From positions 815 through 64,814 of the forward strand of contig JBHADF010000047.1 of NCBI GenBank assembly GCA_041854955.1: a stretch of 64,000 nt of DNA, written 5' to 3'. The position numbers and the translations under genes are program-made. The DNA comes from Anaerovoracaceae bacterium. GTDB taxonomy: Bacteria; Bacillota; Clostridia; Peptostreptococcales; Anaerovoracaceae. Under the pieces are notes generated by a model that worked only from the letters and a program-made list of their open reading frames with translations, had not been told where the DNA came from and ran no database searches. Shown here one piece after another: positions 4,811 to 59,052 of this stretch (position 1 is its first letter; every line of letters begins with the position of its first letter).

Positions 4811-4839
4811 TTTTTTCTTCCTCCGCTTACTGCTTTCTT

Positions 4840-7796: not shown

Positions 7797-7842
7797 TCAA
7801 CAGAAGTTATCGTATAGAAATGATTTATAAAAGGAGGATTTT

Positions 7843-8517: not shown

Positions 8518-8534
8518 GCTAAAAACGAACTTTA

Positions 8535-8566
8535 AAAGAGGTCACAGGTGTGGCCTCTTTTCTTTA
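8535..8566. terminator. Bidirectional rho-independent terminator between convergent genes
   Basis: Hairpin AAAGAGGTCAC-aggt-GTGGCCTCTTT, flanked by an A-run and a T-run. Confidence 0.65.
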
Positions 8567-8980: not shown

Positions 8981-8997
8981 GCCTCCCCTATAGTTAA

Positions 8998-12352: not shown

Positions 12353-12531
12353 AATTTACCTTCTTCTTTCGTAATATTATAGGCTTCTAAAATGCTTTGT
12401 TATACGGAGCTTATCCTATGAGCCTTTCGAGGTTAGTTTTGGCTAACTTCTTGGTAATTCTATCAAAGCCTTTATACCTTGTCAACAATAAAAGCCTCCG
12501 GATTTAAGACTTCTCCGAAGGCCTTTAGCAT

Positions 12532-31768: not shown

Positions 31769-34812
<3,044 letters not shown>

Positions 34813-34816
34813 AAAT

Positions 34817-35932
34817 CTAATTGTTTGTAATCCTTACGGGAAGCACCAGATATTCATAGTGATTTCCGTTTATAGGCCTTATAAGGCAAGGGCTTACACT
34901 GTTGTTGAATAACAGACTTATTTCTTCATCATCTATAGCCTTAAGGGCATCTATTATATATTTTGAGTTAAAGCCTATTACGAGATCATCTCCGAATTTT
35001 GAAATTATAACATTTTCCTTAACATTTCCTTCTTCGGATTTGGATGTTATCTCTATGTTATTTTCTACTATATCGAATTTTACAAGGTTATTCTTTCCAA
35101 CCTTTGCTAAAAGAGAAGCTCTCTCTATAGATTCCAAAAGATCTGATTTATTCACTATAACCTTTATCTTGCTTTCGGAAGGAAGAATTTCATTATATTT
35201 TATAAATTCCCCGTCCAAAAGTCTGAGTACAACCTTTATATCTTCTATTACAAAGGTTACTCTCTTATCGTTTATATACATATCCACAGTCTTTTCTTCT
35301 GTTTCCGACTCGGATATTATCTTTCCTATTTCAGAGATAATTTTAGCCGGTATGATAACCTTTTTTTCTGTGGAATTCTTTATGCCTTCACGGGCTATGG
35401 CCATTCTAAAGCCGTCCAGAGAAACCATATTGAGAGATTCTTCCGTCATTTCCAGGAGAACACCTGTAATAACACCCCTCGATTCATCTATGGAAGCTGC
35501 AAAGGATGTCTTCTTAATCATATCCTTAAGGATTTCCTTATCGAATACTACCTTTTCCCTTTCTTCTTCACTTAAGGAAAGCTTTGGAAATTCATCGGAG
35601 GATGAGCCTACGATGTTGAATTGAGAATTTGAGCAGCTTATCATAACATTATTGTCCTGATTTTCTACCAAAATATTTTCATTGGGAAGCTTTCTTATTA
35701 TGTCGCCGAAAAGCTTGGCTTGAACCACTATTTCTCCCGGTTGAAAATCTTCTACCTGGAAAGTTTTCTCTATGGTTAAATCTAAATCTGAAGCGGACAT
35801 GGTAAGTAGACCATTTTCATCAACCTTTAATAAAATTCCTTTAAGTATGGGAATTGTAGTTCTGGATGTAACCGCTTTTGATACTATATTAAGGGCCTTT
35901 GATAATATCTGCTGCTTGCAAGAAAATTTCAT
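34817..35932 (-). CDS. dnaN: DNA polymerase III subunit beta (sliding clamp)
   Basis: 371 aa. MKF.C....L.KAL..VSKAV..RTTIPIL.GILL start. Lies directly downstream of dnaA/oriC. Confidence 0.95.
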   Translation of the reverse strand: MKFSCKQQILSKALNIVSKAVTSRTTIPILKGILLKVDENGLLTMSASDLDLTIEKTFQVEDFQPGEIVVQAKLFGDIIRKLPNENILVENQDNNVMISCSNSQFNIVGSSSDEFPKLSLSEEEREKVVFDKEILKDMIKKTSFAASIDESRGVITGVLLEMTEESLNMVSLDGFRMAIAREGIKNSTEKKVIIPAKIISEIGKIISESETEEKTVDMYINDKRVTFVIEDIKVVLRLLDGEFIKYNEILPSESKIKVIVNKSDLLESIERASLLAKVGKNNLVKFDIVENNIEITSKSEEGNVKENVIISKFGDDLVIGFNSKYIIDALKAIDDEEISLLFNNSVSPCLIRPINGNHYEYLVLPVRITNN

Positions 35933-36110
35933 TTTTTAACCTCCGCTTTTTATCAATCTTTTATTTTTTTTGTAGTAATAGTAGTAGTAGGGGCTGTGGA
36001 ATCTGTGGATAACTTTTAGGAGTATTATAATTACTCAAAAATTTATTCTTTTTAACCTGTGGATAAGTCTGAAAATTTATCCTAACAGCTTATAGTAAAA
36101 ATTTAATAAG
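35933..36110. other. oriC, dnaA-dnaN intergenic part (unwinding element)
   Basis: AT-rich tract at 35951-35972. Six TAG/TAA trinucleotide repeats at 35973-35990. GGGC cluster. Degenerate box TGTGGAATC at 35995-36003. Perfect DnaA boxes (TGTGGATAA) at 36004-36012 and 36058-36066. Imperfect box TTATCCTAA at 36077-36085. Confidence 0.85.
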
Positions 36111-37493
36111 CTACTCCTTTATTTCTCTTTTAAGATTTTCTATAACCTCACTTAAGCCCTCTTCGTTTTTTATGTCCTCTTCTATTTTTTCACAGGCATA
36201 TTTAACGGTGGTATGGTGTTTGCCTCCGAAATATTTTCCTATCTGAGGTAGTGAGCTGTCTGTCATTTCCCTTATGAGATACATGGCTATTTGCCTTGGA
36301 AATGCTATATTATTAGTCTTTTTATTAGATTCAAGTTCCGATAGTTTAATTCCGTATTTTTGGCACACGGCCTTTTTTATTCTTTCCGGAGTGACGGATA
36401 ATTCGCCACTGTTCGATATTATATTTTTTAAAACACGCTTTGCCATAGCCTTATCCGGCTTATCACCTACCAGGACGGACAGAGAAACGGTACTGTTAAA
36501 GGCACCCTCCATTTCCCTCACATTATCCTTTATCTTTTCGGCTATGGTTACGATTACCTCTTCCAGATCCTTATCCATATTTATTTTCATATTTTTAGCC
36601 ATCCGCTCTAAAATAGCTACTCTCGTTTCATAGTCCGGCGGCTGAATATCGGCTATAAGGTTCCAGTTAAATCGAGATCTAAGCCTTTCATTGAGATTTA
36701 CCAATTTATTGGGAGCTCTGTCGCTGGAAATTATGATCTGCTTGTTTTCACCGTAAAGGGTGTTAAAGGTGTGGAAAAATTCTTCCTGTGTACTTTCTTT
36801 ATTCTCTATAAATTGAATATCATCTATTATGAGTACGTCAACTTTTCTGTATTTTGACTTAAACTCATTTATCTTTCTTTCTCCTAAGGCTCTTATAAGC
36901 TCCGTGGTAAAGGTTTCGCTGTCGGTATAAAGCACATTGAGCTTAGGATTGTTTTTTAGAATATGTATTCCTATAGCCTGTATTAAATGAGTTTTTCCCA
37001 AGCCGGAGCCTCCGTATATAAAAAGAGGATTATATGCATCCGAAGGAGATTCGGCTACGGCCAAAGCAGCTGCATGGGCATATTTATTGCTGTTTCCGAC
37101 TACGAAGTTTTCGAAGGAATGCTTGGGATTAAGCATATTTTCCTTATCCAGCTTCTTTTCCACATGCTTCTTTTTGGAATTTAAAATCTCAGGCTCAGAA
37201 GCTTCCCCTGAATTTGAAAGTTCTTCAGCCTCCTTTATGACAACACGAAAATCACCTTCCAAAACTATTTTGAAGGCTTCCTCCAAGGAAGGGATATATC
37301 TGTTTTTTAAAACATTGATGATAATATCTTGGGAAACGCTGTTTTCAGGACGAACCTGAATATATGCTATATTCAGCTCCGTGTCGATTTTGGATATTTG
37401 AAGGGGGAGAAACCAGGTCTGAAAGCAGGTTTGAGTATTATTTTCCATCAAAATTTCCAAAACGGAATTCCAAATTCTTTCATAAGTGTTCAT
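36111..37493 (-). CDS. dnaA: Chromosomal replication initiator protein DnaA
   Basis: 460 aa from MNTYERIWNSVLEIL. AAA+ Walker A (GGSGLGKTHL), Walker B (LIIDDIQF) and a domain IV motif (HTTVKYACEKI). The 43 upstream codons in the track ORF are rejected as non-DnaA-like. Confidence 0.95.
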   Translation of the reverse strand: MNTYERIWNSVLEILMENNTQTCFQTWFLPLQISKIDTELNIAYIQVRPENSVSQDIIINVLKNRYIPSLEEAFKIVLEGDFRVVIKEAEELSNSGEASEPEILNSKKKHVEKKLDKENMLNPKHSFENFVVGNSNKYAHAAALAVAESPSDAYNPLFIYGGSGLGKTHLIQAIGIHILKNNPKLNVLYTDSETFTTELIRALGERKINEFKSKYRKVDVLIIDDIQFIENKESTQEEFFHTFNTLYGENKQIIISSDRAPNKLVNLNERLRSRFNWNLIADIQPPDYETRVAILERMAKNMKINMDKDLEEVIVTIAEKIKDNVREMEGAFNSTVSLSVLVGDKPDKAMAKRVLKNIISNSGELSVTPERIKKAVCQKYGIKLSELESNKKTNNIAFPRQIAMYLIREMTDSSLPQIGKYFGGKHHTTVKYACEKIEEDIKNEEGLSEVIENLKREIKE

Positions 37494-37583: not shown

Positions 37584-37688
37584 TGGGGATAAATATAGGT
37601 TTTTTAACCTGTCAAGGAGCATATAAACAACTAAATATAGTCAAAAAATCAAAAGTTTTCCTCAATTTTATCCACAAGTTGTGGATAA
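37584..37688. other. oriC, dnaA-upstream DnaA-box cluster
   Basis: Convergent perfect boxes: TTATCCACA at 37668-37676 and TGTGGATAA at 37680-37688. A one-mismatch box (TGGGGATAA) is at 37584-37592. Confidence 0.8.
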
Positions 37689-37718: not shown

Positions 37719-37747
37719 TCGACACAGTCTTAACCAAGTGGTACAAT
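37719..37747 (+). promoter_or_regulatory. Promoter of the SWIM/large-protein operon
   Basis: TCGACA, 17 nt spacer, TACAAT (preceded by TGG). Lies 30 bp downstream of the DnaA-box pair and 36 nt upstream of the ATG. Confidence 0.55.
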
Positions 37748-37783
37748 GAACCTATATATAATTCTTTGTAATTAGGGGGAAAT

Positions 37784-39133
37784 ATGAGAGAATTTAGGGA
37801 CGAGTCAAAACTCTACAATGGAAATTTGGCACTGGCATTGGCACCTGCCTTAACACCTAAGGGAATAGAAAAGGATCCGATTTTCTTTAAGGGCGATATT
37901 GTAAATCCTCTGATTTTTTCAAGAGGCTTAATTGTATTGTCGGATATAGTTTCCACAAGGTATTTCAATTATGTGCCTGTAGCCCTTAGAGATCCGGTTT
38001 TGTCGGCCCAAGGAAACATGCTTAGAGCCGAGTGCTTTTCCGCCTGTAATGGAGTTTATGCCAGACTGGATTTGTTTCAGGAGGGTTTATACGGAGATAT
38101 TTCCTACGGTACTACCAATGTGGATATAGGTACAGAGCTTCGCAAGGCTCTCATAGATGTGAAACAGGGAGACAAGCTTAGGCTTAATATAGGAAATGAG
38201 GGTTTAGGTGCATTTCACAGCATCAAAGAAGAGGAAGGCTACTCTTCCGGCATAAAGTTTATCAGGCAGAGACCTGTGGAGATGCCGGACAGATGGATAA
38301 GAGCCCTGGGAAACTGTGCGGAAATTCATCGTGATATGGAGCTGATTTTCACCATAGAGGGCATGGGAGCGAAAAACTTTATAGCCACCCTGCCTCCCGT
38401 TACTGGGAAGGAACAGGCCGGCTGGCTCACCTATACTAAGAACGGTCTAAAGCTCATGCCGAGAGAATCAAAGGATAGCGTGTACATCAGCGGAATACAC
38501 AGGCTAAGCAGCTTAAAAAGACTTATGAGCGATGTCCGCTCCATAGCCTTCTACGGACCTAAAGCAGGGGAAAAGGGTCCTGTTATGGTAGAAGTCAGAA
38601 TGGACAATACTAATCTTACTCTGAGCTTAACGGCTAAAAGCTATCAGGGCTATTCGGGGGAAGGAGCTTTGCTGGAGTCCCTGTCAACCCTTGAAGCTGT
38701 GGAAAACTCCGACAGAATAAGTGAGCTCCTCTGCTTTGAATCTAAAATAGACAAGGAAGATATAAGCAAAAAATTAAGTCTTACAAAAGCTGAGACGGAT
38801 TACGCCCTGGGATTGTTGGCGGTTTCCGGCAAATTAGGCTACGATGGGAATAAACAGGCATATTTTCACAGAGAGCTGCCCGATGAACCTGAAAGAGTTT
38901 TAAAGGATAATCCCAGATTGAAGGCGGCGAGAAATCTTTTGGAAAATACCGAATACATGGGAGAAAATCGCTGGTCTGTCAGGTCAAAGGACTCGGAATA
39001 CAGAGTTTTCTACGACGGAAATGAAACCATAGAAAAGGCCAAGTGCACCTGCACCTGGTATCTGAAATACCAAAACAGCAGAGGCCCCTGTAAACATATT
39101 TTGGCGGCAAAGCTGAAATCGGAAGAAAAGTAG
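37784..39133 (+). CDS. SWIM zinc-finger family protein, function unknown
   Basis: 449 aa. The C-terminal CTCTWYLKYQNSRGPCKH fits the SWIM CxCxnCxH signature. GGGGGA RBS. No other recognisable motif. Confidence 0.8.
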   Translation: MREFRDESKLYNGNLALALAPALTPKGIEKDPIFFKGDIVNPLIFSRGLIVLSDIVSTRYFNYVPVALRDPVLSAQGNMLRAECFSACNGVYARLDLFQEGLYGDISYGTTNVDIGTELRKALIDVKQGDKLRLNIGNEGLGAFHSIKEEEGYSSGIKFIRQRPVEMPDRWIRALGNCAEIHRDMELIFTIEGMGAKNFIATLPPVTGKEQAGWLTYTKNGLKLMPRESKDSVYISGIHRLSSLKRLMSDVRSIAFYGPKAGEKGPVMVEVRMDNTNLTLSLTAKSYQGYSGEGALLESLSTLEAVENSDRISELLCFESKIDKEDISKKLSLTKAETDYALGLLAVSGKLGYDGNKQAYFHRELPDEPERVLKDNPRLKAARNLLENTEYMGENRWSVRSKDSEYRVFYDGNETIEKAKCTCTWYLKYQNSRGPCKHILAAKLKSEEK

Positions 39134-39179
39134 AGTTTTCTAAAAGAGTCGGATAAGGAGCCGGATTAAAGGAGGAAAA

Positions 39180-42100
39180 ATGGCAAGTAAATTGGAAAAG
39201 GCCGTAGAAATATATAAGTCCTTAGGTTATGAGGAAAAGGATTTTGACCATATATTGGAATTGGGAATAGGCACCAAAGAAGAGCAGAAAATAGCCAAGG
39301 AAGGCTTAAAATCGGGGGAATGGACCGAGTTTAAGCAGCTTTCTCCCAACTCCTACGGCATTGTAAAGGTCATAGATGTGGATTTATCCAAGCTGGCCAT
39401 CTTCGCCATAAGGGTGGGCGTGGATGCGGCAAGGGCTGCCAACATTTTGGGAAAAAGCGGCAAGGTTGCACTGGACGCCATTTCTCAGCGAGGAGAAAAA
39501 TATGCCCTGGATTTCATAAGCAAGGCCTCCTCATCCCGCAGGCGTGCCTGGGAGCATTCATCCAGCGTCTACGGCATGCTTTGCGTAAACCTTGTTCACA
39601 ATATGAATTTGGAAATCCCCCAATCCGTTGAATATATTAAGGATTGGGCGGTTCATGCCGGCGTCTCTATGGGGGTTTTAAAGGCAGACAGAGGCTATGA
39701 TGAGGACTTTGCACCTTCAAGGGATGAGATAAAGAGAAGGTTTGGGGAGCACATCGAAGTGGGCATTTCTAACAATGCTCCCGCCACAGGCCCCTTTAGC
39801 GATGTATTTTTGGCAGGCCTTAAGGAAGGCCTCATAACGAAAAAGAAAGCTAAGGAATCAGCCTTTTTCGCCTTGGATATGGCCCTCAGACCGGGAGACA
39901 GAAAGGCGTGGATGGGCATCTTAAAGGAAATAGGCATAGATGAAGGAGATATTCTCTCTAAAGGCGAGGCCCTTATTCCACTCATAGCCTTAGGAGAGAC
40001 TGCCGTAACGGAGACCTTTGCACCTGTGCTCATCGAAAAGGGAAGAGAAGATATTTTGCCGGATATTTTAATAGCTTCTACAGCGGGAAGTGCAAAGAAA
40101 ATAAAGGAGCTGGTACTTAGGTCGGCCCTTAAGAGGGAAAGGCCTGAGTCCTGCCAAGCTTTAAGGGAATGGTTTTCTATGCTCAAAACTGATAAGGATA
40201 AAAACATAATAAAGCTGGCAGAAAAGGTAGAAAAAGCTTGGAATATAGAGACGGAGGAGGATGAAAATTCTCAGAAAAATGTTCATATTCAGGGTCTTTG
40301 GCAGGAAAGACCTCAGCTTAAAGGGGTTCCGAAATTTTCTTTAGAAGAGATTTCCTTTGAAGCCTTGACGGAGCTTGCAGCGGAGATTTCCAACAGGCAG
40401 GCGGAGGTTTCCGATTTGCTCTTTGAAAAGTTCCTGGCTTCCGTCAACAGGATGGCCTATGAAAATCCGGAGGAAACCAAGCTGAGCCTCATGGGGATAA
40501 AAATTGATGACCGAGATTTCTCCATATTGGGAAATTGGGCCAGAAACAAGGATATAGTCAACACTTTGGACGGATACAGCAGTTTTTGGGTTGAAGGCAG
40601 CGATGAAGTCAGAAGGAGAAATATAAGCGAACTGATGCACGCCCGTAATTTTAATATATGCAGCCATATTCAGGAAATCCCCTGTATCCTTTCTACACCC
40701 AGCTTTGAGGACCTGTCCATCACATTAAAGGATTTGACAGACAGGCTGTTAAAATACAAGGAAGAGAAGAAAACAAGTGTATTGGAGCCGGATCTGCAGC
40801 TGGCCCTTACAAGGCTGGATGTAAGCTCTGCCAATGAAGAGGACATCAGAAGGCTGAAGGATATTAAGCTGAGAGTGAAGATGCCCGACGGAGAAAGCCT
40901 ACGTAAGGAGGATAACAGCCCCGTAGCTCTTGGGGATGTGGTGGCGGATTACTTGAAAGACCCCTATGTGGAGCCTGATTTTGACCCTGAAAGGAATTCC
41001 CTTTGGAGCGTGGATATAGAAATGCCCAAAAGCCTCCGCCATTTCCCTAACAGATTTTCATATAACAGAGATGCCTTGTTTTCCGTATTTCCTTTATGGG
41101 GAGATTTTGCCCTTACCTGTGTAAGGAGAGATACGGAGGTATATCACGGCCAGGGGCTCATATTGAAGCAGGTGGCAAAGAGGAGGGAACCCTTCCCCAA
41201 AGGGGCTCTCATGAACCTTTTGGCCATACATAGCTATTGGAGCGACGAAAACAGCGCTGACCTGATAGAAGCCACAAAGGAAGCTTGGGACAGAGGTTTG
41301 CTCGTAGAAGGAAGGGCCGATGCCAGATACTTGTCTTGGAGATGGAAGGAGTTTTCCAATTTAGCAAGGCTGGCAGATTCCATGGATCAGATAGCACGAG
41401 ACGGAATGCTTTCTCTCCCCTGGCAGGCGGCTGACGACATAATCAGTGAATCTTTAAAAGCACCTCGAATGTTTTCCGGCACGGCGGAGTTGGCAAAATT
41501 CATAGAGAAATATCTGGATGAGGTTATCTTCGCTGTTGAAAAGGGCATAGCAAAACCGGAGGTTCTGGAGCTTAAGGGTATAAGGGGGCTGGCACAGAAA
41601 AAGGGAACTTCGGCTGCCGTGGAGACGGCAAAGGAGATTGTGGCTAAAACAGACAGCTCCGGCCTATTTAAAAAGTCTGTGGAGACAGGAAAAGCTAAAG
41701 GGAAAAAGGAGGAAAGAGAGCAGGCTATACCTGTTCCTGAAATCCCCTTTGATGATGTTTGGAAGAAACCTAAAGAAGCAAGGCCTATAATAGATGACGG
41801 CGTATCCCTTAGGGTTGAACCCTTCGAAAAGCAGGGAAGAAAGCTTCTCCTCTTTACATTGATGCTGCCTGATAAAAAGGACAGGGAATACAAGGTGCTT
41901 ATCAACGGCTGGATATACGGTCTCGATAACGAAGGCCAGACCAGGGCTACGGAGGTGGCTATAGGTGAGGAGTTCCCCAAGGACGATCAAAAGGAGGTTT
42001 GGATTCACTGGAATACTGATGAAAAACGGATGGAGGTTTCCGATTTCCGAGATTGGAGAAACAATTCCAATGGCCCCCTCAAAGGAGAAGAAGCGCCTTT

Positions 42101-42572
42101 GTCCTCCTCTTTGCTGACTGTTATCATAGGCATGTTGGCTCAGGACGGCGATGCGATTTATTACGCATCCGGCACGGTGAAACGGAAGATAGGAACGGGC
42201 GAGATAGGGGCAGATATGATGAGGATGGCGGTAAAACAGCTGCTTTTCCATGAAGCTGTCAGCCCGGCCAAGCTGGTTCGCTTCCTTGAAAAAGAACCCG
42301 AGCTTTTACCTGTATGCTATGTAATGCTTACGGAATGTGTCCGCAAAGCCGGAGAACACACGGCTAAAGAGGGCCGACCGCCCCTATGGGTCAACAGAGT
42401 TCTGGATATCTGCATTTACCACGGATGTTACCTAAAGGAGGCTGCCGAAAGAGGCTTGATTTCCGGTGAAGAGGGGAAATGGCAAGGCCTTGAGGAAATC
42501 GCCGCCTGCAAAGCAAAATCCACAGCAGTGGAAAAGGCGAAAATATTTTCGGAGTTTATAAAAGAAAGCTGA
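39180..42572 (+). CDS. Large (1130 aa) soluble, apparently alpha-helical protein of unknown function, operonic with the SWIM protein
   Basis: AAAGGAGG RBS, 46 nt after the SWIM stop. I could find no signal peptide, TM segment, Walker A or catalytic motif. Confidence 0.75.
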   Translation: MASKLEKAVEIYKSLGYEEKDFDHILELGIGTKEEQKIAKEGLKSGEWTEFKQLSPNSYGIVKVIDVDLSKLAIFAIRVGVDAARAANILGKSGKVALDAISQRGEKYALDFISKASSSRRRAWEHSSSVYGMLCVNLVHNMNLEIPQSVEYIKDWAVHAGVSMGVLKADRGYDEDFAPSRDEIKRRFGEHIEVGISNNAPATGPFSDVFLAGLKEGLITKKKAKESAFFALDMALRPGDRKAWMGILKEIGIDEGDILSKGEALIPLIALGETAVTETFAPVLIEKGREDILPDILIASTAGSAKKIKELVLRSALKRERPESCQALREWFSMLKTDKDKNIIKLAEKVEKAWNIETEEDENSQKNVHIQGLWQERPQLKGVPKFSLEEISFEALTELAAEISNRQAEVSDLLFEKFLASVNRMAYENPEETKLSLMGIKIDDRDFSILGNWARNKDIVNTLDGYSSFWVEGSDEVRRRNISELMHARNFNICSHIQEIPCILSTPSFEDLSITLKDLTDRLLKYKEEKKTSVLEPDLQLALTRLDVSSANEEDIRRLKDIKLRVKMPDGESLRKEDNSPVALGDVVADYLKDPYVEPDFDPERNSLWSVDIEMPKSLRHFPNRFSYNRDALFSVFPLWGDFALTCVRRDTEVYHGQGLILKQVAKRREPFPKGALMNLLAIHSYWSDENSADLIEATKEAWDRGLLVEGRADARYLSWRWKEFSNLARLADSMDQIARDGMLSLPWQAADDIISESLKAPRMFSGTAELAKFIEKYLDEVIFAVEKGIAKPEVLELKGIRGLAQKKGTSAAVETAKEIVAKTDSSGLFKKSVETGKAKGKKEEREQAIPVPEIPFDDVWKKPKEARPIIDDGVSLRVEPFEKQGRKLLLFTLMLPDKKDREYKVLINGWIYGLDNEGQTRATEVAIGEEFPKDDQKEVWIHWNTDEKRMEVSDFRDWRNNSNGPLKGEEAPLSSSLLTVIIGMLAQDGDAIYYASGTVKRKIGTGEIGADMMRMAVKQLLFHEAVSPAKLVRFLEKEPELLPVCYVMLTECVRKAGEHTAKEGRPPLWVNRVLDICIYHGCYLKEAAERGLISGEEGKWQGLEEIAACKAKSTAVEKAKIFSEFIKES

Positions 42573-42701: not shown

Positions 42702-42730
42702 TTGACAAGGGCAGGGTATTAGCATATAAT
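42702..42730 (+). promoter_or_regulatory. Consensus sigma-A promoter of rpmH-rnpA
   Basis: TTGACA (42702-42707), 17 nt spacer, TATAAT (42725-42730). Confidence 0.75.
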
Positions 42731-42795: not shown

Positions 42796-42930
42796 ATGAA
42801 ACAGACATATCAGCCTAAGAAAAGACAGAGAATGAAGGAACACGGCTTCAGAAAGAGAATGGCTACTAAGAACGGTAGAAATGTTTTGAAGAGAAGAAGA
42901 GCAAGAGGCAGAAAGCAGCTTACTGTTTAA
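42796..42930 (+). CDS. rpmH: 50S ribosomal protein L34
   Basis: Below the ORF-track size cutoff. Hand translation gives [51 protein letters not shown]. Confidence 0.95.
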
Positions 42931-42961
42931 TTTCCTGTCGGTTTTAAGAAAGAAGCTAAAA

Positions 42962-49227: not shown

Positions 49228-49998
49228 GTGGGAAAAGCAATAGCAATTTTCAATCAAAAAGGTGGAGTAGGAAAGACCACAACTAACATAAATCTGGCAG
49301 CTTGTTTGGCTCTCAGGGGAAAGCGAGTACTCATACTGGACATAGACCCTCAGGGCAACACTACCAGCGGTATCGGAGTTTCCAAGAGGACCTTGAAGAA
49401 CACCATATACAACATTCTCATAGACAAGGAATACGATCCGAGAAAGGCCATAACAAAGACTAAAATACCAAACTTGGATCTTATACCGGCCAGCGTAGAC
49501 CTGGCAGGAGCCGAGGTGGAGCTGGTAGCCATAGAAGGCAGGGAAAGAGCCTTAAAGAAGGGCTTGGATAAGATAAAGGGTGATTATGACTACATCTTTA
49601 TAGACTGTCCACCCTCACTGGGCCTTTTAACCATCAACTCGCTGACGGCTGTTGACAGTGTTTTAATACCCATACAATGCGAGTTCTATGCTTTGGAGGG
49701 AGTGAGCCAGCTGGTGAGCACCATCGAGCTGGTAAAGAAGAGCTTAAATCCAAATCTTGAAATACAGGGCGTAATTCTTAGCATGTTTGACGGCAGGACA
49801 AACCTGTCAGCTCAGGTAGTGCAAGAGGTTAAGAGATATTTCGGAGGCAAGGTATATGCTACCGTAATCCCCAGAAATGTGCGACTGGCAGAGGCTCCCA
49901 GCTATGGAATGCCTATTACGGAGTATGACCCTAAATCCAGAGGTGCGGAGGCATATATGGATTTTGCGGAAGAATTCTTGGATTTGGAGGAGAACTGA
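49228..49998 (+). CDS. soj: Chromosome partitioning ATPase ParA/Soj
   Basis: GTG start after GGAGGG. Deviant Walker A (NQKGGVGKTTT). Confidence 0.93.
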   Translation: MGKAIAIFNQKGGVGKTTTNINLAACLALRGKRVLILDIDPQGNTTSGIGVSKRTLKNTIYNILIDKEYDPRKAITKTKIPNLDLIPASVDLAGAEVELVAIEGRERALKKGLDKIKGDYDYIFIDCPPSLGLLTINSLTAVDSVLIPIQCEFYALEGVSQLVSTIELVKKSLNPNLEIQGVILSMFDGRTNLSAQVVQEVKRYFGGKVYATVIPRNVRLAEAPSYGMPITEYDPKSRGAEAYMDFAEEFLDLEEN

Positions 49999-49999
49999 T

Positions 50000-50908
50000 A
50001 TGGCAGCAGTTAAAAAAGGAGGTCTGGGCAGGGGCTTGGATGCCCTCTTTGCTGACGGGGTGCTGTCCCAAGAAGTAAAGGCTGTTGAAAAAGCAGAAAA
50101 GAGCTTGCCCATACCGGAAGCGACGGACTCGGCAGAGCAGGTAAGGTATTTAGACATACACAGAATCCTACCCAACGCCAATCAACCCAGAAAAATCTTT
50201 GATGAGGCAAAAATTGAGGAGCTTTCCAACTCTATAATGGAGAACGGAATCATACAGCCAATCCTGGTGAGAAGAAAAGGCGAAAACTTTGAAATCGTTG
50301 CAGGAGAACGGAGATGGAGGGCAGCCATGAAGGCGGAGCTTTCCAAAGTGCCCTGCCTCATAAGAGAGCTGGACGATGAGCAGAACATGCTTGTGGCCAT
50401 TATAGAGAACATGCAGAGGGAGGATTTAAACCCCTTGGAAGAAGCTGAAGGTCTAAACCAGATGCTTATAAACTTCGGTATGACCCAGGAGCAGATTTCA
50501 AAGAGTCTGGGAAAGAGCAGACCGTATATTACCAATGCTTTGAGACTTTTAAAGCTACCTGAATACATAAAGGAAGCCCTGGCTTCGGGACAGATTACCG
50601 CAGGCCATGGCAGGACATTGCTTTCTCTGGAGAATGAAGAGCTTAGGAAACAGCTCCTGCACAAGATTATAAAGGAAGGCCTTTCTGTTCGGGAAACGGA
50701 AAAACAGGTTGACTCTCTAGGGAAATCCAAGAAAAGACCGGCAAAGAGATCTAAAAACCCTGATTTGGCCAGAGTGGAGGGAGATCTTAAGGACGCCTTA
50801 GGAACTCGAGTAAACATAGTGCAGACGGGAAAGAAGGGTAAGATAGAAATCGAATTTTTCAGCAGAGATGAACTGGAAAGACTGGTAGAGATATTGAAAT
50901 CCCTGTAA
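50000..50908 (+). CDS. spo0J: Chromosome partitioning protein ParB/Spo0J
   Basis: Start at the ATG at 50000 (MAAVKKGGLGRGLDALF). GERRWRAA box and an HTH. The longer track ORF overlaps soj and is rejected. Confidence 0.93.
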   Translation: MAAVKKGGLGRGLDALFADGVLSQEVKAVEKAEKSLPIPEATDSAEQVRYLDIHRILPNANQPRKIFDEAKIEELSNSIMENGIIQPILVRRKGENFEIVAGERRWRAAMKAELSKVPCLIRELDDEQNMLVAIIENMQREDLNPLEEAEGLNQMLINFGMTQEQISKSLGKSRPYITNALRLLKLPEYIKEALASGQITAGHGRTLLSLENEELRKQLLHKIIKEGLSVRETEKQVDSLGKSKKRPAKRSKNPDLARVEGDLKDALGTRVNIVQTGKKGKIEIEFFSRDELERLVEILKSL

Positions 50909-51146: not shown

Positions 51147-54100
51147 ATGAAAAGCAAGCAGAATAGAAGAAGGCTAAGCGTATTTATAATGGCGTTCTTC
51201 GTATTATTTTCTGTTTTCGGGCAGAGTGTAAATGTGTCCTTTGCCGGTGAAGGAGATTATACCTTCAACATTTCCGGCACAGGGGATTTAACCATAAGAC
51301 CTGGGGCGGCCTTCAATTTTATCGGAGACGCCGGAGTGAGCTTCACCCCTGACAGCAGCCAATGGCAGGCTGGGGATGAGTTTCGTCTGGAGGTTACAGG
51401 TGTAGATAAGCCTATAGGAGGCACATACACCTATGCTGCGGGAGACACTTCCTTTACTCCCCAAGCAGCAGATAACGGGAAGACCTATACCGTCCATTAT
51501 GAAATTAAGAAAAAGGTGGGAGGAGCTTGGGTTCCTTTAGATACACCGAAGACGGCGACAAAGGCCTTGAGGGTGTTTGCCACATCACAGATTTTGCCCA
51601 TGCTTACAAGCGATGACGCTGAGGTTACCAATCTTGTCGTTGCTAAGATTGTTGACGGAGTCGGACCCTTTGATTCGGACAGCGCGGCAGGTAACGACAG
51701 CAGCTCCGACAACAGAATAGTGAGAACCTTTGATTCTGTTACCTACCAGGTAGGATACAACACAAAGGGCAAAACTGCCGGGGTTTCCTACAAGCAGGGA
51801 TATATTAAATTTGAGTTCACTCTGCCCTTTCCCAAGGATGTAGCCACCTTTGATACTGCTTCCATGGGATGGATGACCGGAGATGCCGGGTACAAATGGA
51901 CCTTGACGGAATCGGGAGGAGTTCAGACCTTGAAGGCCGCAAAGAAGCTGGAGTCTGAGGGTGAAAATGCCACGGCAATACCCGGCTCCGGAGATATACC
52001 CGTTCATATCAATGTATATTCGGCTAAGAACGGAGATAAGATCCAGCCTACCTTTAAAAGCTGGATGGACTACAGTTCTCAGGTTAAAACTGTTGTACCT
52101 GATGGGGTTACGGTTTCCGCAGCCCCCAGATACAATATAGAAATAAACAAGACAAATGATGTTTACATCGGTTCCATCAGTACTTTTGACTTTTCTACGG
52201 GAAATGAAAAGGCTATGGATAAGGATGCAGGAACCATATACGGAAAATTACAGGGCTATGGTATATCTCTGCAGCTCTATAACACTACAAAGGACAAAAA
52301 GCTGAAGGGTATAGAGCTTCCTCAGGGAGACATAACCTTTAAGCTTGATATGACATCCGTATATGAGCCGGCAGCAGGGGGAAGCCATGCTGTGGCCAAT
52401 CCTAAGGTATGGTCCTTTGTCCCTGCCGTGGATGGAGTAAATCCGGGCCAAGACGGCAGAGATATATCTACCTACAGCAACTATACTTATGCCACTGTAG
52501 CGAGTGCTTTAAACAAATACAGCGGAGTTACTCCTACGACACCTTTTGCAGCTTCTCCCAAGACAGGAACCAATGCCAACTGGTATGGTGGAGGCTGGTC
52601 CATAAAGAAGCTTGCCGACGGTCGGTATGAGGTTACTGTAAAAGACTATAAGATAAACCCTAAATGGTTTCCTAATACATGGGGAGGAGTAGTTCCTCTT
52701 TCAGACCCGAGGTGGTTTGATCCGGCTTTAGGCGTTGCTAATATAGGGTCTTTCTCTGCAGGTTCACTTCTTATGGTAGTGCCCTTCGGAGGCTCAACAG
52801 GCCAGGAAGATCCCAACTATTACACCGCATTGTACGGCAATGGAAACATTAATACAAATGTGAAGGTTAGCGACATGACTGCCAAGAGCGTAAGCGGTCA
52901 GCCTTTGGTGGCTCAGACTGTAGCTACTGATGATGCCATAGGCCATAAGGTAGAGCTTACCATGAAGGGTGATTTTGGAAACAGAATTATGTATAACAGC
53001 CCGACTACAACTAATCTGGCCGGACTGGACAATCTGTATTCCGCAGGAAATATCCGCGACGGAGCTGATGCAGCTTCCATAAACTCCAAGCTTAGAATAA
53101 GATGGGGAGGCTTAAATGACCCTAAAGGAGACAGCAGCCAAGCCACCTTTGCAGCCAACTATCTTATGAAATTTGACGATGAAGCCTTGGACTTCGATCC
53201 TACGGAGCCTCCATTCGTACTTTCGGGAAATCACAGTGCCGGATACTCTCAGAAATTCCTTTATGCTGCTAAGCCTGACGGAAAGGGATGGACCGGTGAT
53301 GACGAGATGAATGCTGCCAACGAAGAGAATTTAGTGTACTATCCTTCTCTGGCCAGCCTGAAGGCAGCTAATAAAGTGTGCGTAGGTGTTTTGGCAGAGG
53401 TAAGGAAAACCGATAATAAGCCGAAGTTTTCCCAGCAGCAAGACTACCGGCGCATGGTGGGAATGATAGTTAAAAATGACCCTTCCCTTGTTGGAAAAGT
53501 ATATATGATTACAGAGGTTACAAACCTTTGGAGAGAGGCTGAGTACAAGGCGGTTTTAGCAGCCAACGGGGGAACCTTCCCCACAAGAGAAAACATGGCA
53601 GTAGGACAAACCGTAAATACTACCAATGCCACCAAGCCTTCAGTTTTCAACCATAGAGACTTAGGCTACTACAAGAAATATTCATATAATGCAAACGGGC
53701 CTGTGGAAGGCAGCAGAGGAGAGCCTCGTAGAGGAGACTCTCTATATATAGTAGGCTATCGTTCTGAAATTTCAAAGAAAGTGGTCCAGAAGGACGCTGA
53801 CGGAAACGACAAGATAACCTTTGATTTAGACTTAAACCAATATGTGGTGGATTATCAGCTGGCCCTTTCCATGAAAATCGAAAAAGATGTAGTGATAACC
53901 AATCCCACTACAATATATGTTAAGGACACTCTTCCTAAGGGCTTGACCTATATTCCCGGATCGTCATATTACGATGGGACCTATACTCCCTCTACCAAGC
54001 CGGGACAGAGCGGTACGGTGACCGGTGGAACTGCTATAGCTCCAACGGTAACGGAGCAAAGTAACGGAACCACAGTTCTTACTTGGGAGATACCTAATGT

Positions 54101-57098
54101 TAGGGTGGAAGCAAATATACCTGATATATATTTTAAGGCACGTTTGAGTTCTACCGTAGCAACCAACGTAATACTTAAGAACACGGCTTCTATTGCTACG
54201 ACAGAAGACAAGAGAGAGCAGAAGCCTGAAAACGGCAATATGAGCGAGGTTTCCATAAAGACCTCCAAGACAAGTGATATATCCCTTGTTAAAAAGGGAG
54301 AACAGGTTGTTTATGACTTGTCCGGCCCTATATCATATAACCTGGAATTCTATAACAACGGCGGCTCCGGAAAGACCAAGCAAGTGTTTATGGACACTAT
54401 GCCGGCCAACGGACAGGGGGCTACCAACTATAGCGGTACTATCACCTTAGGTGCTTTACGCTTGACCGCGCCGGACGGAAAGACTCCGGCAGACTATGAA
54501 GCCTGGTACACTTTAGATGAAGGGGTTAAGGCCCTCAATTCATTCGACTTTACCTATGACGGTATCAGAAGCGGTTCGGAAAAGGGCATTACATGGACAA
54601 AGGCTACAATAGACGCTTCCGGAAATATTACCGGAATGACAGGAGCAAAGGTAACAGCCTTTGTAGTTTTGGGAGACCTTCCTGCTAAAAAGGTTTTGAA
54701 GCTGAAGGTAACCATCAATGCTGCGGGAAATAAGATCGGGGACATCTACGAAAACAGCATGTCCCTGGGAGCAGGCGTTACCTCAGGTATAGTGTTTGTT
54801 GTTGAAAGAAAGCTGACAGGAACACTTTGGGAAGATGAAAACTTTGACGGCAAGAAGGACAGCACTGAAAGAAAATTGGCAGGAGCTACGGTTACTCTCT
54901 ACGACGGTGCAGGAAATGTAGTAAGTAATCTTAACGGAAATCCTTGCGTAACCACTACGGATACCACCGGGTCCTATGAATTTACAGCCTTGCCTGCGGG
55001 CACCTTCAAGGTAGTATTTACCGGCGGTGCAAGTATGGATTTAGGAGAATATATTCTGACGGAGAAGGATAATCCTGTGGCAGGAGATAGCCTGGATTCA
55101 GATGCAACTGCTGCAGGTTCCACTGCTGACGGAGCCTTTGTAAGCGGTGTTATCATGCCGGCTGCGGCCACTATCAAATCCAACCCCTACGTGCTGAGAA
55201 ATGTAGATGCGGGCCTTGTAAGAAACAAAACCGTTAAAGAGTATGCCGATGACTCGGCTGCGGGAAAAGGCGGAAGTGCTGTTAAGGTCCATGACGAAAT
55301 CACATATACCGTTGAATTCCTGAATGGGGACGGTACGCTTAAGGATGTCGTAATAGAAGATATGATGAGCAAGGGTCTCACATATAAGAACGGCAGCGCT
55401 AAGCTTTTCAAGGGAACGGAAGATGTAACCGCCACATATCTGGACGAACCTACGGATTCGGACCCGGATGCAGTAGCAAGCCATACCTTGAAATGGCAAT
55501 TCAAAGAAAAAATAGGTAAAGGTAAATACTATCTAACCTACAAGGCAATGGTAATAGGAAAGGCCATGGAGGATATGGAAGTAACTAACACAGCTGTAGT
55601 CAAGATCCAAGGCCAGGCTGATGTTACTACAGATACCTTAAAGAATCCGGTTTCTCAGAAGGCATATCAGGATAATTCATGGGTTTCGAAAAAAGTCGGT
55701 AACGGAATGAAGATTCCTTATCAGGTAAGCTTTAACAATGTTAAGGCTGCTCCTCAGGCCGTAATCATTAAGGACACCATGTCCAAGGGTTTGGTATATC
55801 AGGGAGATGCAGCAGTTGTAAACTTAGACGGTACTGCTTTGGCAGCAACCTTGACTCACAGCGAAGTAAACAATTTGGACGGTTCCGTGACCCATACTTG
55901 GCAGATCGACAATGTTCCCCCAAATACCAAGGGAAAGATCGTATACAGCGGGGAAGTAACCTCTCCTGCCTATGGACCGGGGAAGGTAGAAAACAAGGCC
56001 ACGGTAAAATACGGCAATGACAGCGAGGCTGCCTTGGAAAGCCTGATGAATCCGCTTGTTCCTGTTAAAAAGACTGTAACAGGAGCAGCCGGCGATCTGG
56101 ACGGAAAGCTGGTCAGCCCCGATGAAGTATTGGAATACACCGTAACCTACGAAAAAGCTTCAACAGTTGAGGAAACCGTTACTATTAAAGATACTCTGCC
56201 TGAACATACGACCTATGTGGATGGTTCGGCAGACAATGGGGGCGTATATGATCCCGTTACAAGGACTGTAGAGTGGACACTGACCCTTCCGGCTGCTGCA
56301 GGAAGCCATCCTGTAAGCTTTAAGGTGAAGGTTGACCAGATAACTCAAGGAGCTGCCTTGGAAAATACCGCAACCATTACTGAGGGAGCCAATGTATATA
56401 TTACCAATACCACTAAGAACCCTACACCTACAGGTGCTACAAAGGAAGTAAGAAGCGAAGGCGGCACAGCGAATATAGACGGTCAAACTGTCAGTGTAAA
56501 TGATACCTTAACATATTTGATTACCTATCAGAATACACTGGGTCACGATACTACTGCCAAGATTTCAGACCTTATTCCCGAACATACCACCTATGTAGAC
56601 GGATCGGCAGATATCAGCGGTGGAGTATACGATCCTGCAACCAAGACTGTAAAATGGGATTTGAATGTGAGTGACGGACAAAGCGTAACCGTAAGCTTCA
56701 AGGTGAAAATTGACGGAGGAGCCTACTATGCTAGGATAGAAAATCAAGGTATTGTGGACAACGGAGCTTCTACCGTTTATACAAACAAAACAGACAACCC
56801 TGTAGGAGGCCCACCATTACCGCCTACACCACCGGTACCGCCTACGCCACCCACACCACCTGTGCCACCGGTACCGCCCACACCGCCCACACCACCGGAA
56901 CCTCAGAACCCCCCTGTAGACAAGCCGGAGGTACCTAAGCCGGAAAAACCTGAGCCACCTAAGACGGATAAGCCGGGAAGCCACGGAAAGGACACTCCTA
57001 AAACGGGAGATTCCAGCCAAATGCTCCTTTGGGCCGCCCTCATGGCAGGCTCTATGTTAGAGGCAGGAAGAAGAATGGCGAAAAAAGGCAAGAAATAA
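51147..57098 (+). CDS. Very large (1983 aa) cell-wall-anchored surface protein/adhesin with SdrD-B/Cna-B-like and repeated DUF11/TIGR01451-type Ig-like domains
   Basis: Signal peptide MKSKQNRRRLSVFIMAFFVLFSVFGQSVNVSFA. An SdrD-B-like module (LTGTLWEDENFDGKKD...TTDTTGSYEFTALPAGTFKV). At least four ~125-aa repeats of the form ..V.pGD.ltYtv.y.N....tv.I.D.lp.gttYVdGSA.. Pro-rich stalk. TPKTG motif, hydrophobic helix and an RRMAKKGKK tail. Confidence 0.85.
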   Translation: MKSKQNRRRLSVFIMAFFVLFSVFGQSVNVSFAGEGDYTFNISGTGDLTIRPGAAFNFIGDAGVSFTPDSSQWQAGDEFRLEVTGVDKPIGGTYTYAAGDTSFTPQAADNGKTYTVHYEIKKKVGGAWVPLDTPKTATKALRVFATSQILPMLTSDDAEVTNLVVAKIVDGVGPFDSDSAAGNDSSSDNRIVRTFDSVTYQVGYNTKGKTAGVSYKQGYIKFEFTLPFPKDVATFDTASMGWMTGDAGYKWTLTESGGVQTLKAAKKLESEGENATAIPGSGDIPVHINVYSAKNGDKIQPTFKSWMDYSSQVKTVVPDGVTVSAAPRYNIEINKTNDVYIGSISTFDFSTGNEKAMDKDAGTIYGKLQGYGISLQLYNTTKDKKLKGIELPQGDITFKLDMTSVYEPAAGGSHAVANPKVWSFVPAVDGVNPGQDGRDISTYSNYTYATVASALNKYSGVTPTTPFAASPKTGTNANWYGGGWSIKKLADGRYEVTVKDYKINPKWFPNTWGGVVPLSDPRWFDPALGVANIGSFSAGSLLMVVPFGGSTGQEDPNYYTALYGNGNINTNVKVSDMTAKSVSGQPLVAQTVATDDAIGHKVELTMKGDFGNRIMYNSPTTTNLAGLDNLYSAGNIRDGADAASINSKLRIRWGGLNDPKGDSSQATFAANYLMKFDDEALDFDPTEPPFVLSGNHSAGYSQKFLYAAKPDGKGWTGDDEMNAANEENLVYYPSLASLKAANKVCVGVLAEVRKTDNKPKFSQQQDYRRMVGMIVKNDPSLVGKVYMITEVTNLWREAEYKAVLAANGGTFPTRENMAVGQTVNTTNATKPSVFNHRDLGYYKKYSYNANGPVEGSRGEPRRGDSLYIVGYRSEISKKVVQKDADGNDKITFDLDLNQYVVDYQLALSMKIEKDVVITNPTTIYVKDTLPKGLTYIPGSSYYDGTYTPSTKPGQSGTVTGGTAIAPTVTEQSNGTTVLTWEIPNVRVEANIPDIYFKARLSSTVATNVILKNTASIATTEDKREQKPENGNMSEVSIKTSKTSDISLVKKGEQVVYDLSGPISYNLEFYNNGGSGKTKQVFMDTMPANGQGATNYSGTITLGALRLTAPDGKTPADYEAWYTLDEGVKALNSFDFTYDGIRSGSEKGITWTKATIDASGNITGMTGAKVTAFVVLGDLPAKKVLKLKVTINAAGNKIGDIYENSMSLGAGVTSGIVFVVERKLTGTLWEDENFDGKKDSTERKLAGATVTLYDGAGNVVSNLNGNPCVTTTDTTGSYEFTALPAGTFKVVFTGGASMDLGEYILTEKDNPVAGDSLDSDATAAGSTADGAFVSGVIMPAAATIKSNPYVLRNVDAGLVRNKTVKEYADDSAAGKGGSAVKVHDEITYTVEFLNGDGTLKDVVIEDMMSKGLTYKNGSAKLFKGTEDVTATYLDEPTDSDPDAVASHTLKWQFKEKIGKGKYYLTYKAMVIGKAMEDMEVTNTAVVKIQGQADVTTDTLKNPVSQKAYQDNSWVSKKVGNGMKIPYQVSFNNVKAAPQAVIIKDTMSKGLVYQGDAAVVNLDGTALAATLTHSEVNNLDGSVTHTWQIDNVPPNTKGKIVYSGEVTSPAYGPGKVENKATVKYGNDSEAALESLMNPLVPVKKTVTGAAGDLDGKLVSPDEVLEYTVTYEKASTVEETVTIKDTLPEHTTYVDGSADNGGVYDPVTRTVEWTLTLPAAAGSHPVSFKVKVDQITQGAALENTATITEGANVYITNTTKNPTPTGATKEVRSEGGTANIDGQTVSVNDTLTYLITYQNTLGHDTTAKISDLIPEHTTYVDGSADISGGVYDPATKTVKWDLNVSDGQSVTVSFKVKIDGGAYYARIENQGIVDNGASTVYTNKTDNPVGGPPLPPTPPVPPTPPTPPVPPVPPTPPTPPEPQNPPVDKPEVPKPEKPEPPKTDKPGSHGKDTPKTGDSSQMLLWAALMAGSMLEAGRRMAKKGKK
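56811..56975 (+). repeat. Low-complexity Pro-codon repeat (PPxPPT / KPE units) encoding the wall-spanning stalk
   Basis: Reiterated ccaccggtaccgcc(y)ac(r)cc units. Translation: PPLPPTPPVPPTPPTPPVPPVPPTPPTPPEPQNPPVDKPEVPKPEKPEPPKTDKPG. Confidence 0.8.
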
Positions 57099-57321: not shown

Positions 57322-59052
57322 ATGTCATTTAATATACCTATGCCGGCATGCATCATTAACAATCAGGGAAAGGTAATAAACGCCAACGAATACATCGGAG
57401 AGGTGTTCCTTTACGATGGGATTTTGGATGCAGATATTTTCACCCTGACGGGAGTGAAGTGCTCTGAGCTTTACGAGGCAGCAGAACAAGGGATAAGCAC
57501 ATTCCTCAAAAGGCCGGACAAAACCTTTAAGATGATTCCCTACAAGGAAAATCCGGAGGAAGATGCCGACCTGACTATTCTCTTTTCCGACATAACCTCC
57601 TTTGAAGACTTAAAACAGAGATATAACAGCGAAAAGCCCTGCATCGCCAAAATTCTATTGGATAATTATGACCAGCTTTTCGAGGCGGAAAGCACAGGAT
57701 ACAAGATGGGCCTTTCCTCTGACATAGATCAGATTATAAGGAGATGGGCTGCCAAGATAGACGGCTCCGTATCCATGCTGAAAAGCAGCAAATATATGGT
57801 TTGGTTTGAGCAGCAGTACCTGGAGAAGCTCAGCGAGGATAAATTTGAACTTTTAGATGAAGTGAGAAATCTGGAGACGGGAGCTGATTTCCCCGCCAGC
57901 CTCAGCATAGGCATAGGCGTAGGCGGCTCCACCATGGCTGAGACAGAGGAGTTTGCCGATGCTGCCATGGACTTGGCTTTGGGCCGAGGGGGAGACCAGG
58001 TTGTCATAAAGAAAAAGGCCAAGATAGAATACTACGGAGGTACTCTTCCCACACCGGAAAAGAGCAACAAAGGAAAGTCCAGAATAGTAGGGCACGCTCT
58101 TAAGCAGCTAATAGAACAATCAGGAAAGATTTTCGTAATGGGTCACAGATATGCGGATATGGACAGCTTCGGCGCAGCCCTTGGGGTTACCCGCCTCTGC
58201 ATGATGTCGGAACGAGAGCCCTATATAGTTTTAGAGGATTATAACGAAACCCTCCATGCCATATATAAACAAGCAAGAACTTCAGAGGAGTACAATTTTA
58301 TCTCCTGCGAAAAGGCCATCAGCCTGGTGGACGGAGACAGCCTCATAGTGGTGGTGGATACTCATCGCCCTAGCATGGTTCAATGCCCTCAGCTTTTGGA
58401 GAAAAGCGACAAGGTAGTCGTAATCGACCATCACAGAAAGGTGGAGGAATTCATCGAAAATCCAATGCTGGCTTATATGGAAAGCTACGCTTCCTCAGCA
58501 TCGGAACTGGTTTCAGAGATTTTGGAATACATGGGCAGCAAGAAGCCTTTGGCAAAGATAGAGGCGGAGGCACTTTTGGCGGGAATAACGGTAGATACCA
58601 ACGGCTTCGGAGTGAAGACGGGAGTAAGAACCTTTGAAGCGGCCGCTTGGCTCAGAAGACAGGGTGCAGACCCTACAGAGGTTAAGAGATTCTTCCAGGA
58701 AGACTTTGAAAATATAAAGGTTAGAGCCAAGGCCATAGCCGGAGCCCGGCTTTATGAAGAGTCAGGGGTGGTCATAGCCACCTGCCCTACTCTCAAAAAA
58801 GATGCTCAGCTCATCTGTGCGCAGGTAGCAGACAGACTTCTGACCATAAGAGGGGCAAAGGCCACCTTCGCCATAGGAAGAAACGGTGCCGAGGAGACGG
58901 TAATAAGTGCCAGATCCTTGGGAGATGTAAATGTACAGCTAATCATGGAAAAATTCGGAGGCGGAGGCCATCTCACCACTGCTGCGGCACAGGTAAAGAT
59001 GTCCGTTGAGGACACCGTTGACGAAATTAAGAGAATATTGGAGGTTAAATGA
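57322..59052 (+). CDS. gdpP: GdpP-like DHH/DHHA1 phosphodiesterase (PAS-like, degenerate GGDEF, DHH, DHHA1) lacking the N-terminal TM helices
   Basis: DHH motifs: [27 protein letters not shown]1 motif: GGGGH. Conserved position upstream of rplI-dnaB, as for B. subtilis yybT. No hydrophobic N-terminus. Confidence 0.8.

Follow-up and report, generated by a model that had tools for sequence, protein, structure and literature searches.

A SWIM-finger and DUF6493-type gene pair inserted between dnaA and rpmH in an Anaerovoracaceae bacterium

Do genes that lie beside a chromosomal replication origin (oriC) belong to the biology of that origin? The question is raised by a stretch of 64,000 nucleotides from an Anaerovoracaceae bacterium (GenBank assembly GCA_041854955.1, contig JBHADF010000047.1, positions 815 to 64,814 of the forward strand), the whole of which is designated here as the window. 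According to the listing of open reading frames (ORF), dnaA and rpmH are separated in the window by two intact genes of the same strand, which form a cassette of 4.8 kb. The first gene encodes a protein of 449 residues with a SWIM zinc finger and the second a protein of 1130 residues. An initial annotation of the locus, made from the letters alone, proposed the pair as a candidate for an origin-adjacent and possibly DnaA-coupled system related to replication, chromosome organization or nucleic-acid surveillance. The analysis described below leads to a different answer: the cassette is a single, lineage-specific insertion, and the pair is a member of a widespread family that, judging from sequence comparisons, has spread laterally and shows no conserved link to oriC.

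Insertion of the cassette beside oriC

The insertion is evident from the comparison with relatives of this Anaerovoracaceae-like Firmicute. The nearest DnaA proteins are 77% and 67-68% identical and are encoded in metagenome-assembled genomes (MAG) of the Anaerovoracaceae type. On these contigs, rpmH-rnpA-yidC-jag-mnmE-mnmG-rsmG-parAB is directly divergent from dnaA-dnaN-recF and the spacer between the two blocks measures 270-350 bp, without the cassette. The spacer contains the same TTATCCACA-N3-TGTGGATAA pair of DnaA boxes and one to three further boxes; the pair is followed by the rpmH promoter (TTGACA-17-TATAAT) and a conserved leader. In the window, rpmH retains an intact promoter and leader on the right of the cassette. 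The layout of the relatives' spacer therefore indicates that the cassette entered the interval bounded by the ancestral DnaA boxes on one side and the rpmH promoter on the other. The box pair is ancestral to the dnaA/oriC region, since relatives without the cassette have it as well. The two-gene operon described by the initial annotation at the dnaA/rpmH junction is thus confirmed in its ORF and gene order, and its insertion is a one-off event of this lineage. The same dnaN-dnaA-SWIM-BIG-rpmH junction is spanned by a Logan contig (run SRR28642690), an independent assembly, and a chimeric assembly is rejected on these grounds. The features of the locus are the following:

37584..37592, minus strand: one-mismatch DnaA box TTATCCCCA upstream of dnaA, in the ancestral dnaA/oriC spacer and not in the cassette
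37668-37676 (plus strand) and 37680-37688 (minus strand): perfect convergent DnaA boxes TTATCCACA-agt-TGTGGATAA, left side of the insertion
37719..37747, plus strand: candidate sigma-70 promoter of the cassette, TCGACA-17-TACAAT, with 10/12 matches and a TG extension
37774..37780, plus strand: ribosome-binding site AGGGGGA of the SWIM gene
37784..39133, plus strand: gene of the SWIM-finger protein, 449 residues (ORF listing, Pfam, PADLOC)
39170..39175, plus strand: Shine-Dalgarno sequence AGGAGG of the large gene
39180..42572, plus strand: large partner gene, 1130 residues, long-form member of the DUF6493/DUF7824 family
42702..42730, plus strand: rpmH promoter, perfect TTGACA-17-TATAAT, right side of the insertion, with a downstream leader conserved in relatives
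42797-42931, plus strand: rpmH, ribosomal protein L34, 44 residues
42962-43303, plus strand: rnpA, after rpmH

The left flank is formed by dnaA (minus strand, 36111..37490/37622), dnaN, recF and gyrB, and the right flank, on the plus strand, by rpmH, rnpA, yidD, yidC, jag and mnmE. The longest dnaA ORF, of 503 residues and extending to 37622, probably begins too far upstream; the 460-residue form with its start at 37490 is the one used by the gene caller and in all the homologues. With this start, the spacer from dnaA to the cassette is ~290 bp and not 160 bp. The GC skew switches sign at ~37500, and two further perfect DnaA boxes lie between dnaA and dnaN. The candidate cassette promoter starts 30 bp from the perfect box pair, exactly as the initial annotation had placed it. 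Upstream of dnaA, the window has two perfect boxes and one with a mismatch (37584-37688); there are three boxes in one relative (L047, 9880-9920) and five in another (L048, 1290-1580). Boxes of this upstream oriC cluster may have been lost or shifted when the cassette was inserted.

Within the cassette, the stop codon of the SWIM gene and the start of the large gene are 46 bp apart. The ribosome-binding site of the SWIM gene is found in a similar CAGGGGGA context in Lachnospiraceae homologues. On the plus strand between 42573 and 42700, after the large gene, there is no terminator-like structure, so that read-through into the rpmH-rnpA operon is possible. The same spacer contains a Shine-Dalgarno-like GAGGAGGG and a mini-ORF of six codons.

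The flanks of the cassette contain no convincing terminal inverted repeats or target duplications, and the short AT-rich matches found there are among 50 pairs at chance level. Across homologous loci with different contexts, no end sequences are conserved upstream or downstream of the pair. An origin of the cassette promoter and leader by duplication of those of rpmH was considered and rejected (local alignment score of 14, against a shuffle mean of 15.2).

The composition of the cassette is host-like (GC 45-47%; window mean 44.7%) and unlike that of the dnaA block, in agreement with the initial annotation. The recF-dnaN-dnaA block (33706-37490) has a GC content of 34-38% and a GC at third codon positions of 0.33-0.39, versus 44-49% GC in the flanks. 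The same dip is present in the relatives L048 and L049 (0.32-0.35 versus 0.40-0.45). A foreign origin of the low-GC block is consequently rejected; the dip is a trait of the lineage and is uninformative on foreignness.

The conserved origin-proximal block of the window contains a second lineage-specific insertion. A gene for a surface protein of the DUF11/SdrD_B/SpaA type, with 1983 residues (51147-57098), is located between parB (49877-50908) and gdpP (57322-59052). In the relatives L047 and L049 parB and gdpP are neighbors, separated in L049 by no more than a small DUF1294 gene.

The gene pair and its family

The homologous loci number 129 and comprise 45 genome loci, 81 metagenome or nearest-homologue loci (77 and 4, respectively) and three plasmid loci checked by annotation; the flanks fetched extend up to 8-10 kb. 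Among the genome loci with upstream DNA, the large gene is immediately preceded by the SWIM gene in all but one divergent spirochaete locus; for the metagenome and nearest-homologue loci, the count with the SWIM gene upstream is 62 of 62. The matrices of pairwise identity obtained for each of the two proteins correlate with r = 0.978, a value that none of 999 Mantel permutations reaches. This strict pairing and the matched divergence indicate that the two genes are inherited and transferred as one unit. Clustering of the flanking ORF in the 45 genome loci reveals no third gene common across genera, and the flanks differ. The initial annotation mentioned pairs of SWIM-finger and very large DUF-type proteins without an established function; such a pair is indeed conserved across the loci, and its function is likewise not established.

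The pair is carried by Johnsonella, Catonella, Lachnoanaerobaculum, Oribacterium, Shuttleworthella, Filifactor and Gilliamella, as well as by beta- and delta-proteobacterial MAG, a spirochaete and a Mycoplasmatales MAG, and it is abundant in oral and gut Firmicutes; Lachnospiraceae of the oral cavity are among its carriers. Relatives of the large protein exceed 1100 in the databases at roughly 50% identity, and an exhaustive profile search with this protein yields 468 cluster representatives. The distribution across phyla is patchy and the identities (40-56%) are incongruent with taxonomy. On this comparison of sequences, the pair has spread laterally. Most loci encode intact copies of the two proteins, and conservation is strong. 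Some loci deviate from the common arrangement. Two SWIM paralogues, of 428 and 447 residues, precede the large gene in L002 (region ~6700-9990). A gene stands between the SWIM and the large gene in L010 (an alpha/beta-hydrolase, 8444-9896) and in L044 (a methyltransferase, 6740-7501). In L026, L032, L034 and L038 the large gene is broken into two to four ORF, which may be pseudogenes or assembly errors.

The neighborhoods of the homologues differ from that of the window. The genes dnaA, dnaN, recF, gyrB, rnpA, yidC, jag, mnmE and mnmG are absent from the fetched flanks of all 129 loci. The surroundings of the three nearest homologues (53-57% identity) are unrelated, metabolic ones, with genes for amino-acid biosynthesis and phosphate transport in one, a UvrD helicase and a tRNA methyltransferase in another, and a T2SSE ATPase and a peptidase in the third. 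Among all the homologous pairs only one is near any replication genes. It is that of the Chondrinema litorale plasmid NZ_CP111067.1 (L054, 74 kb), where, in the region 3411-13499, the pair lies between two replication-initiation genes and parA; the plasmid has 47 annotated features and such a proximity could easily arise by chance.

In some lineages, other neighbors are of the types met in genetic conflict. A TIR-WD40 protein is encoded two genes downstream of the pair in Catonella morbi (L017:16857-19991). In L. saburreum, genes for a sacsin-like protein of 1288 residues and a superfamily 1 (SF1) helicase of 1238 residues are upstream of the pair (L006:761-8344). In Lachnoanaerobaculum (L007:7384-8469), the pair is immediately preceded by an HTH_3+ImmA/IrrE gene and immediately followed by RecQ. 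In Diaphorobacter, an integrase and a VapC/Phd pair precede the two genes, and a few GmrSD matches occur among the neighbors of the homologous pairs.

The family of the window pair is revealed by its plasmid homologues. A tblastn search of plasmids with the SWIM protein retrieves full-length homologues from Streptomyces, Diaphorobacter, Nonomuraea, Asticcacaulis and Chondrinema, with identities of 30-35% across 94% of the length. In the three plasmid loci inspected (Streptomyces sp. NBC_01205, Diaphorobacter sp. HDW4B and Chondrinema litorale) the next gene is in each case annotated as a DUF6493 family protein, with the Pfam domains DUF6493, DUF7824 and DUF7825. The order is the same as in the window, with the SWIM (PF04434) gene first and the large gene immediately after, and in both cases neither family has an assigned function. 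Two differences separate the window pair from these pairs. Their genes overlap, and in close homologues of the window pair the stop and start codons overlap by 11 nt, unlike the 46-bp gap of the window. Furthermore, the large protein of the window has an additional C-terminal domain of ~280 residues, which is missing from the short forms of the family (~800-850 residues). By sequence comparison, the window pair is a divergent long-form member of the widespread SWIM and DUF6493 module.

The assignment of the large protein is based on its relatives and on profile comparison. Its sole Pfam match, DUF7824, is borderline (27.4 bits versus a cutoff of 27.5), and the Pfam scan gives no direct match to DUF6493 (PF20103) or DUF7825 (PF25149). 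On the other hand, 32 of 42 divergent relatives match DUF7824 (PF25148) at E <= 0.001. The Pfam results thus place the protein in a divergent long-form branch. A homologue with 49% identity (P0037) is named DUF6493 family protein by NCBI, and the hhalign comparison of the window family profile with the Streptomyces DUF6493 family protein has a probability of 98% (E = 2.5e-13, 735 columns). The protein consists of two parts:

39387..41669, plus strand: HEAT/ARM-like alpha-solenoid, residues ~70-830 (AlphaFold2, Foldseek and hhalign)
41727..42569, plus strand: C-terminal domain, residues ~850-1130, in which a helical bundle comes after a beta-rich module

The AlphaFold2 model has a predicted local distance difference test score (pLDDT) of 77.7, with a K/E-rich linker between the solenoid and the C-terminal domain. 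Foldseek retrieves only generic HEAT/ARM matches of low TM-score (TSC, mTOR, importins, condensin Ycg1 and PP2A-A). Neither Pfam, even at E <= 10, nor the sequences of the Protein Data Bank (PDB) yield a match for the C-terminal domain. The view of the initial annotation, of a protein without transmembrane segment, Walker motif or catalytic signature, is upheld: there is no transmembrane segment (maximum KD19 of 1.5), no catalytic Pfam domain, and the sole Walker-A-like string (AANILGKS, residues 86-93) is rejected as a motif because it is not conserved in the family.

The SWIM protein has three recognizable elements:

37991..38125, plus strand: acidic motif D70-x7-N78-x4-E83-x30-D114 (residue comparison across phyla)
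38690..38869, plus strand: predicted winged helix-turn-helix, residues ~303-362 (weak IclR/MarR/ArsR/GntR fold matches)
39044..39097, plus strand: SWIM zinc finger C421-x-C423-x12-C436-x-H438 (Pfam SWIM, E = 1.4e-7)

The terminal CxCxnCxH finger recognized by the initial annotation is therefore genuine. The winged helix is consistent with weak Pfam matches of the Streptomyces homologue to DprA_WH, GntR and HTH_24. In the acidic motif D70, E83, D96 and D114 show no variation between Firmicutes, Streptomyces and Bacteroidota; at position 78 the window protein has N and most homologues have D. The N-terminal half has no Pfam match, even at E <= 10. In the AlphaFold2 model residues 1-183 are poor (pLDDT ~30) and residues 184-449 moderate, and Foldseek gives only weak matches to winged helix-turn-helix and PCNA-like folds, with the N-terminal half poorly modelled. 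When the PDB sequences were searched with profiles of the SWIM protein, of the large protein and of the C-terminal domain of the latter, no match had an E value below 0.1.

Homology to the type XIII retron accessory protein extends over the full length of the SWIM protein (PADLOC model SWIM_XIII, E = 1.9e-44), and the SWIM partners of the DUF6493 proteins match the same model at 1e-49 to 1e-58. The canonical DUF6493 proteins match nothing in PADLOC. Type XIII retrons are described by Mestre et al. as composed of a reverse transcriptase (RT), the msr/msd, a WH-SWIM protein (cluster 114_1) and a HEAT/ARM-repeat protein (PMC7736814). The accessory protein contains the motif Dx7[D]x4Ex30-32Dx37E, a winged helix resembling that of DprA and a SWIM finger of the form CxCx12CxH, and is usually accompanied by the HEAT/ARM-repeat proteins (PMC7736814). 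The SWIM protein of the window resembles it in all three elements. Its acidic motif matches the start of the published DEDE motif of cluster 114_1, of which the last E cannot be placed. The large partner is predicted to be a HEAT/ARM-like solenoid, a likeness to the retron partner in fold class, and has no sequence match in PADLOC. The gene order is reversed relative to type XIII retrons, in which the HEAT gene usually precedes the SWIM gene. No RT gene adjoins the cassette in its dnaA/rpmH flank or is a conserved neighbor in the 126 chromosomal and metagenomic loci, a result that comes from the flanking and shared neighbor genes and not from a search aimed at RT in the entire window or in every neighbor protein. 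An Rfam scan of the window at the gathering thresholds, not specific to type XIII msr/msd, found one tRNA only.

Two other systems that combine comparable proteins were considered. The yehH/yehI-yehLMPQ cluster of Escherichia coli, which encodes a DUF4132/WGR protein, a MoxR ATPase, a VWA protein and the SWIM protein YehQ, also unites a SWIM-finger protein with a very large uncharacterized helical protein. A kinship was rejected: the hhalign probabilities are 1.5% for the SWIM protein versus YehQ, and 0.4% and 0.1% for the large protein versus YehI and YehM, and the resemblance is limited to the SWIM motif. No MoxR or VWA genes are found among the neighbors of the pair, unlike in the Yeh cluster. 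The HEAT-repeat sensor domains of defense proteins such as DSR2 (PMC11263360) have a similarly large helical-repeat surface, and by analogy only, the solenoid could recognize a foreign protein. Unlike DSR2, the window pair has no Sir2 or other known effector domain, and there is no sequence or specific fold match.

Possible roles of the module

The homology of the SWIM protein to the type XIII accessory protein, itself paired with HEAT/ARM proteins, leads to the module being read as a retron-less relative of that pair, with neither RT nor msDNA. The interpretation favored here, with moderate confidence, is that a laterally acquired, retron-less module of the SWIM and DUF6493 type was inserted once, that its position at oriC is incidental and that its role is most plausibly in genetic conflict or anti-phage defense. 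In such a module the 449-residue protein would bind nucleic acids through its predicted winged helix and SWIM finger, and its conserved acidic D/E motif may be catalytic, derived from a nuclease or a transposase. The SWIM protein would form a complex with the 1130-residue HEAT/ARM-like solenoid, acting as a scaffold or sensor, and the additional C-terminal domain of the latter is a candidate ligand-binding or effector part. A more specific version, which is tentative, regards the pair as a stand-alone immune or conflict system without RT, an ancestral effector module that was later recruited by type XIII retrons. The solenoid and the C-terminal domain would then sense the invader and the SWIM protein would cut or block DNA via the acidic motif. 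Under this version, the placement at oriC would provide the highest gene dosage and replication-coupled expression.

Several observations weigh against the favored interpretation. The region that contains the acidic motif is modelled at a pLDDT of ~30, so that a nuclease fold cannot be confirmed, and the large protein matches no PADLOC model, including those of any retron XIII partner. The defense-type neighbors are few, lineage-restricted and not independent, and most flanks contain housekeeping genes. The synteny of the pair is stable across at least six Lachnoanaerobaculum genomes, with no hypervariable island. Searches of phage records and IMG/VR contigs, and of plasmids for the large gene, gave no matches. 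Finally, the searchable literature on DUF6493, DUF7824 and the type XIII retron accessory proteins yielded no functional study.

The alternative that first suggests itself at this locus, an origin-coupled and DnaA-regulated system for replication control, chromosome organization or oriC surveillance, is highly improbable. It would explain why a promoter-like site lies so close to two perfect DnaA boxes at the GC-skew switch, and it is in keeping with the predicted DNA binding of the SWIM protein, the weak match of the solenoid to the condensin HEAT subunit Ycg1 and the position of the Chondrinema pair between rep genes and parA. However, none of the nine origin-region genes is within the fetched flanks (up to 8-10 kb) of any of the 126 chromosomal and metagenomic loci, the three nearest homologues lie in metabolic contexts, and the closest relatives of the host keep the DnaA boxes without the cassette. 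The Ycg1 match is generic, with a TM-score of 0.14-0.18. The neighborhood comparison put forward in the initial annotation thus gives a divided outcome: the two genes co-occur, whereas adjacency to oriC is seen in no relative. The absence of any oriC linkage among homologous pairs had been named beforehand as speaking against an origin-coupled system, and this part of the initial annotation is abandoned. Nor is there an argument for DnaA sensitivity of the candidate promoter as a part of the function of the module; the boxes happen to adjoin it.

The remaining alternatives concern the nature of the pair. It could be a host-beneficial module outside genetic conflict, such as a DNA repair, recombination or transcription-associated complex, vertically retained and neutral to oriC in its acquisition. 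The stable Lachnoanaerobaculum synteny with RecQ directly downstream, the UvrD/PcrA helicase near one close homologue, the conservation of both intact proteins in most loci, and the report that type XIII retron components follow the 16S phylogeny (PMC7736814) all point in this direction. This is nevertheless unlikely, given the patchy phyla and identities at odds with taxonomy, the fragmentation of the large gene in four loci and the absence of the pair at this site from the closest relatives of the host; the adjacencies of RecQ and UvrD are lineage-restricted. It is quite improbable that the pair is a mobile element transposed into the rpmH-dnaA spacer, with the SWIM protein as a MULE/IS256-like DDE transposase, either active or domesticated recently. 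The DEDE motif has been likened to that of the IS256 and Mutator transposases, which also have C-terminal SWIM fingers (PMC7736814), and the patchy taxonomy, the insertion sites that differ between genera and the lineage-specific insertion in the window would suit a mobile element. On the other hand, no convincing inverted repeats, target duplications or conserved ends were found, each locus has one copy, and synteny is stable in the Lachnoanaerobaculum genomes. No RNase-H-like fold was recovered in the SWIM model, in which the 183 N-terminal residues have a pLDDT of ~30, and a HEAT partner of 1100 residues is not a known transposon component.

Meaning for the origin region and for the family

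For replication the pair has no significance: its position at oriC reflects a single insertion event and there is no conserved link to the origin. What the locus reveals about the host is that the rpmH-dnaA spacer tolerates an insertion of 4.8 kb between the DnaA boxes and the rpmH promoter. The module itself is of interest, being strictly conserved, horizontally spread and widespread, and known by annotation only. Its link to the type XIII accessory protein and the unmatched C-terminal domain of the large protein sustain some of this interest. A phenotype for the pair would bear on the mechanism of the type XIII retrons and would add a retron-independent branch to the family.

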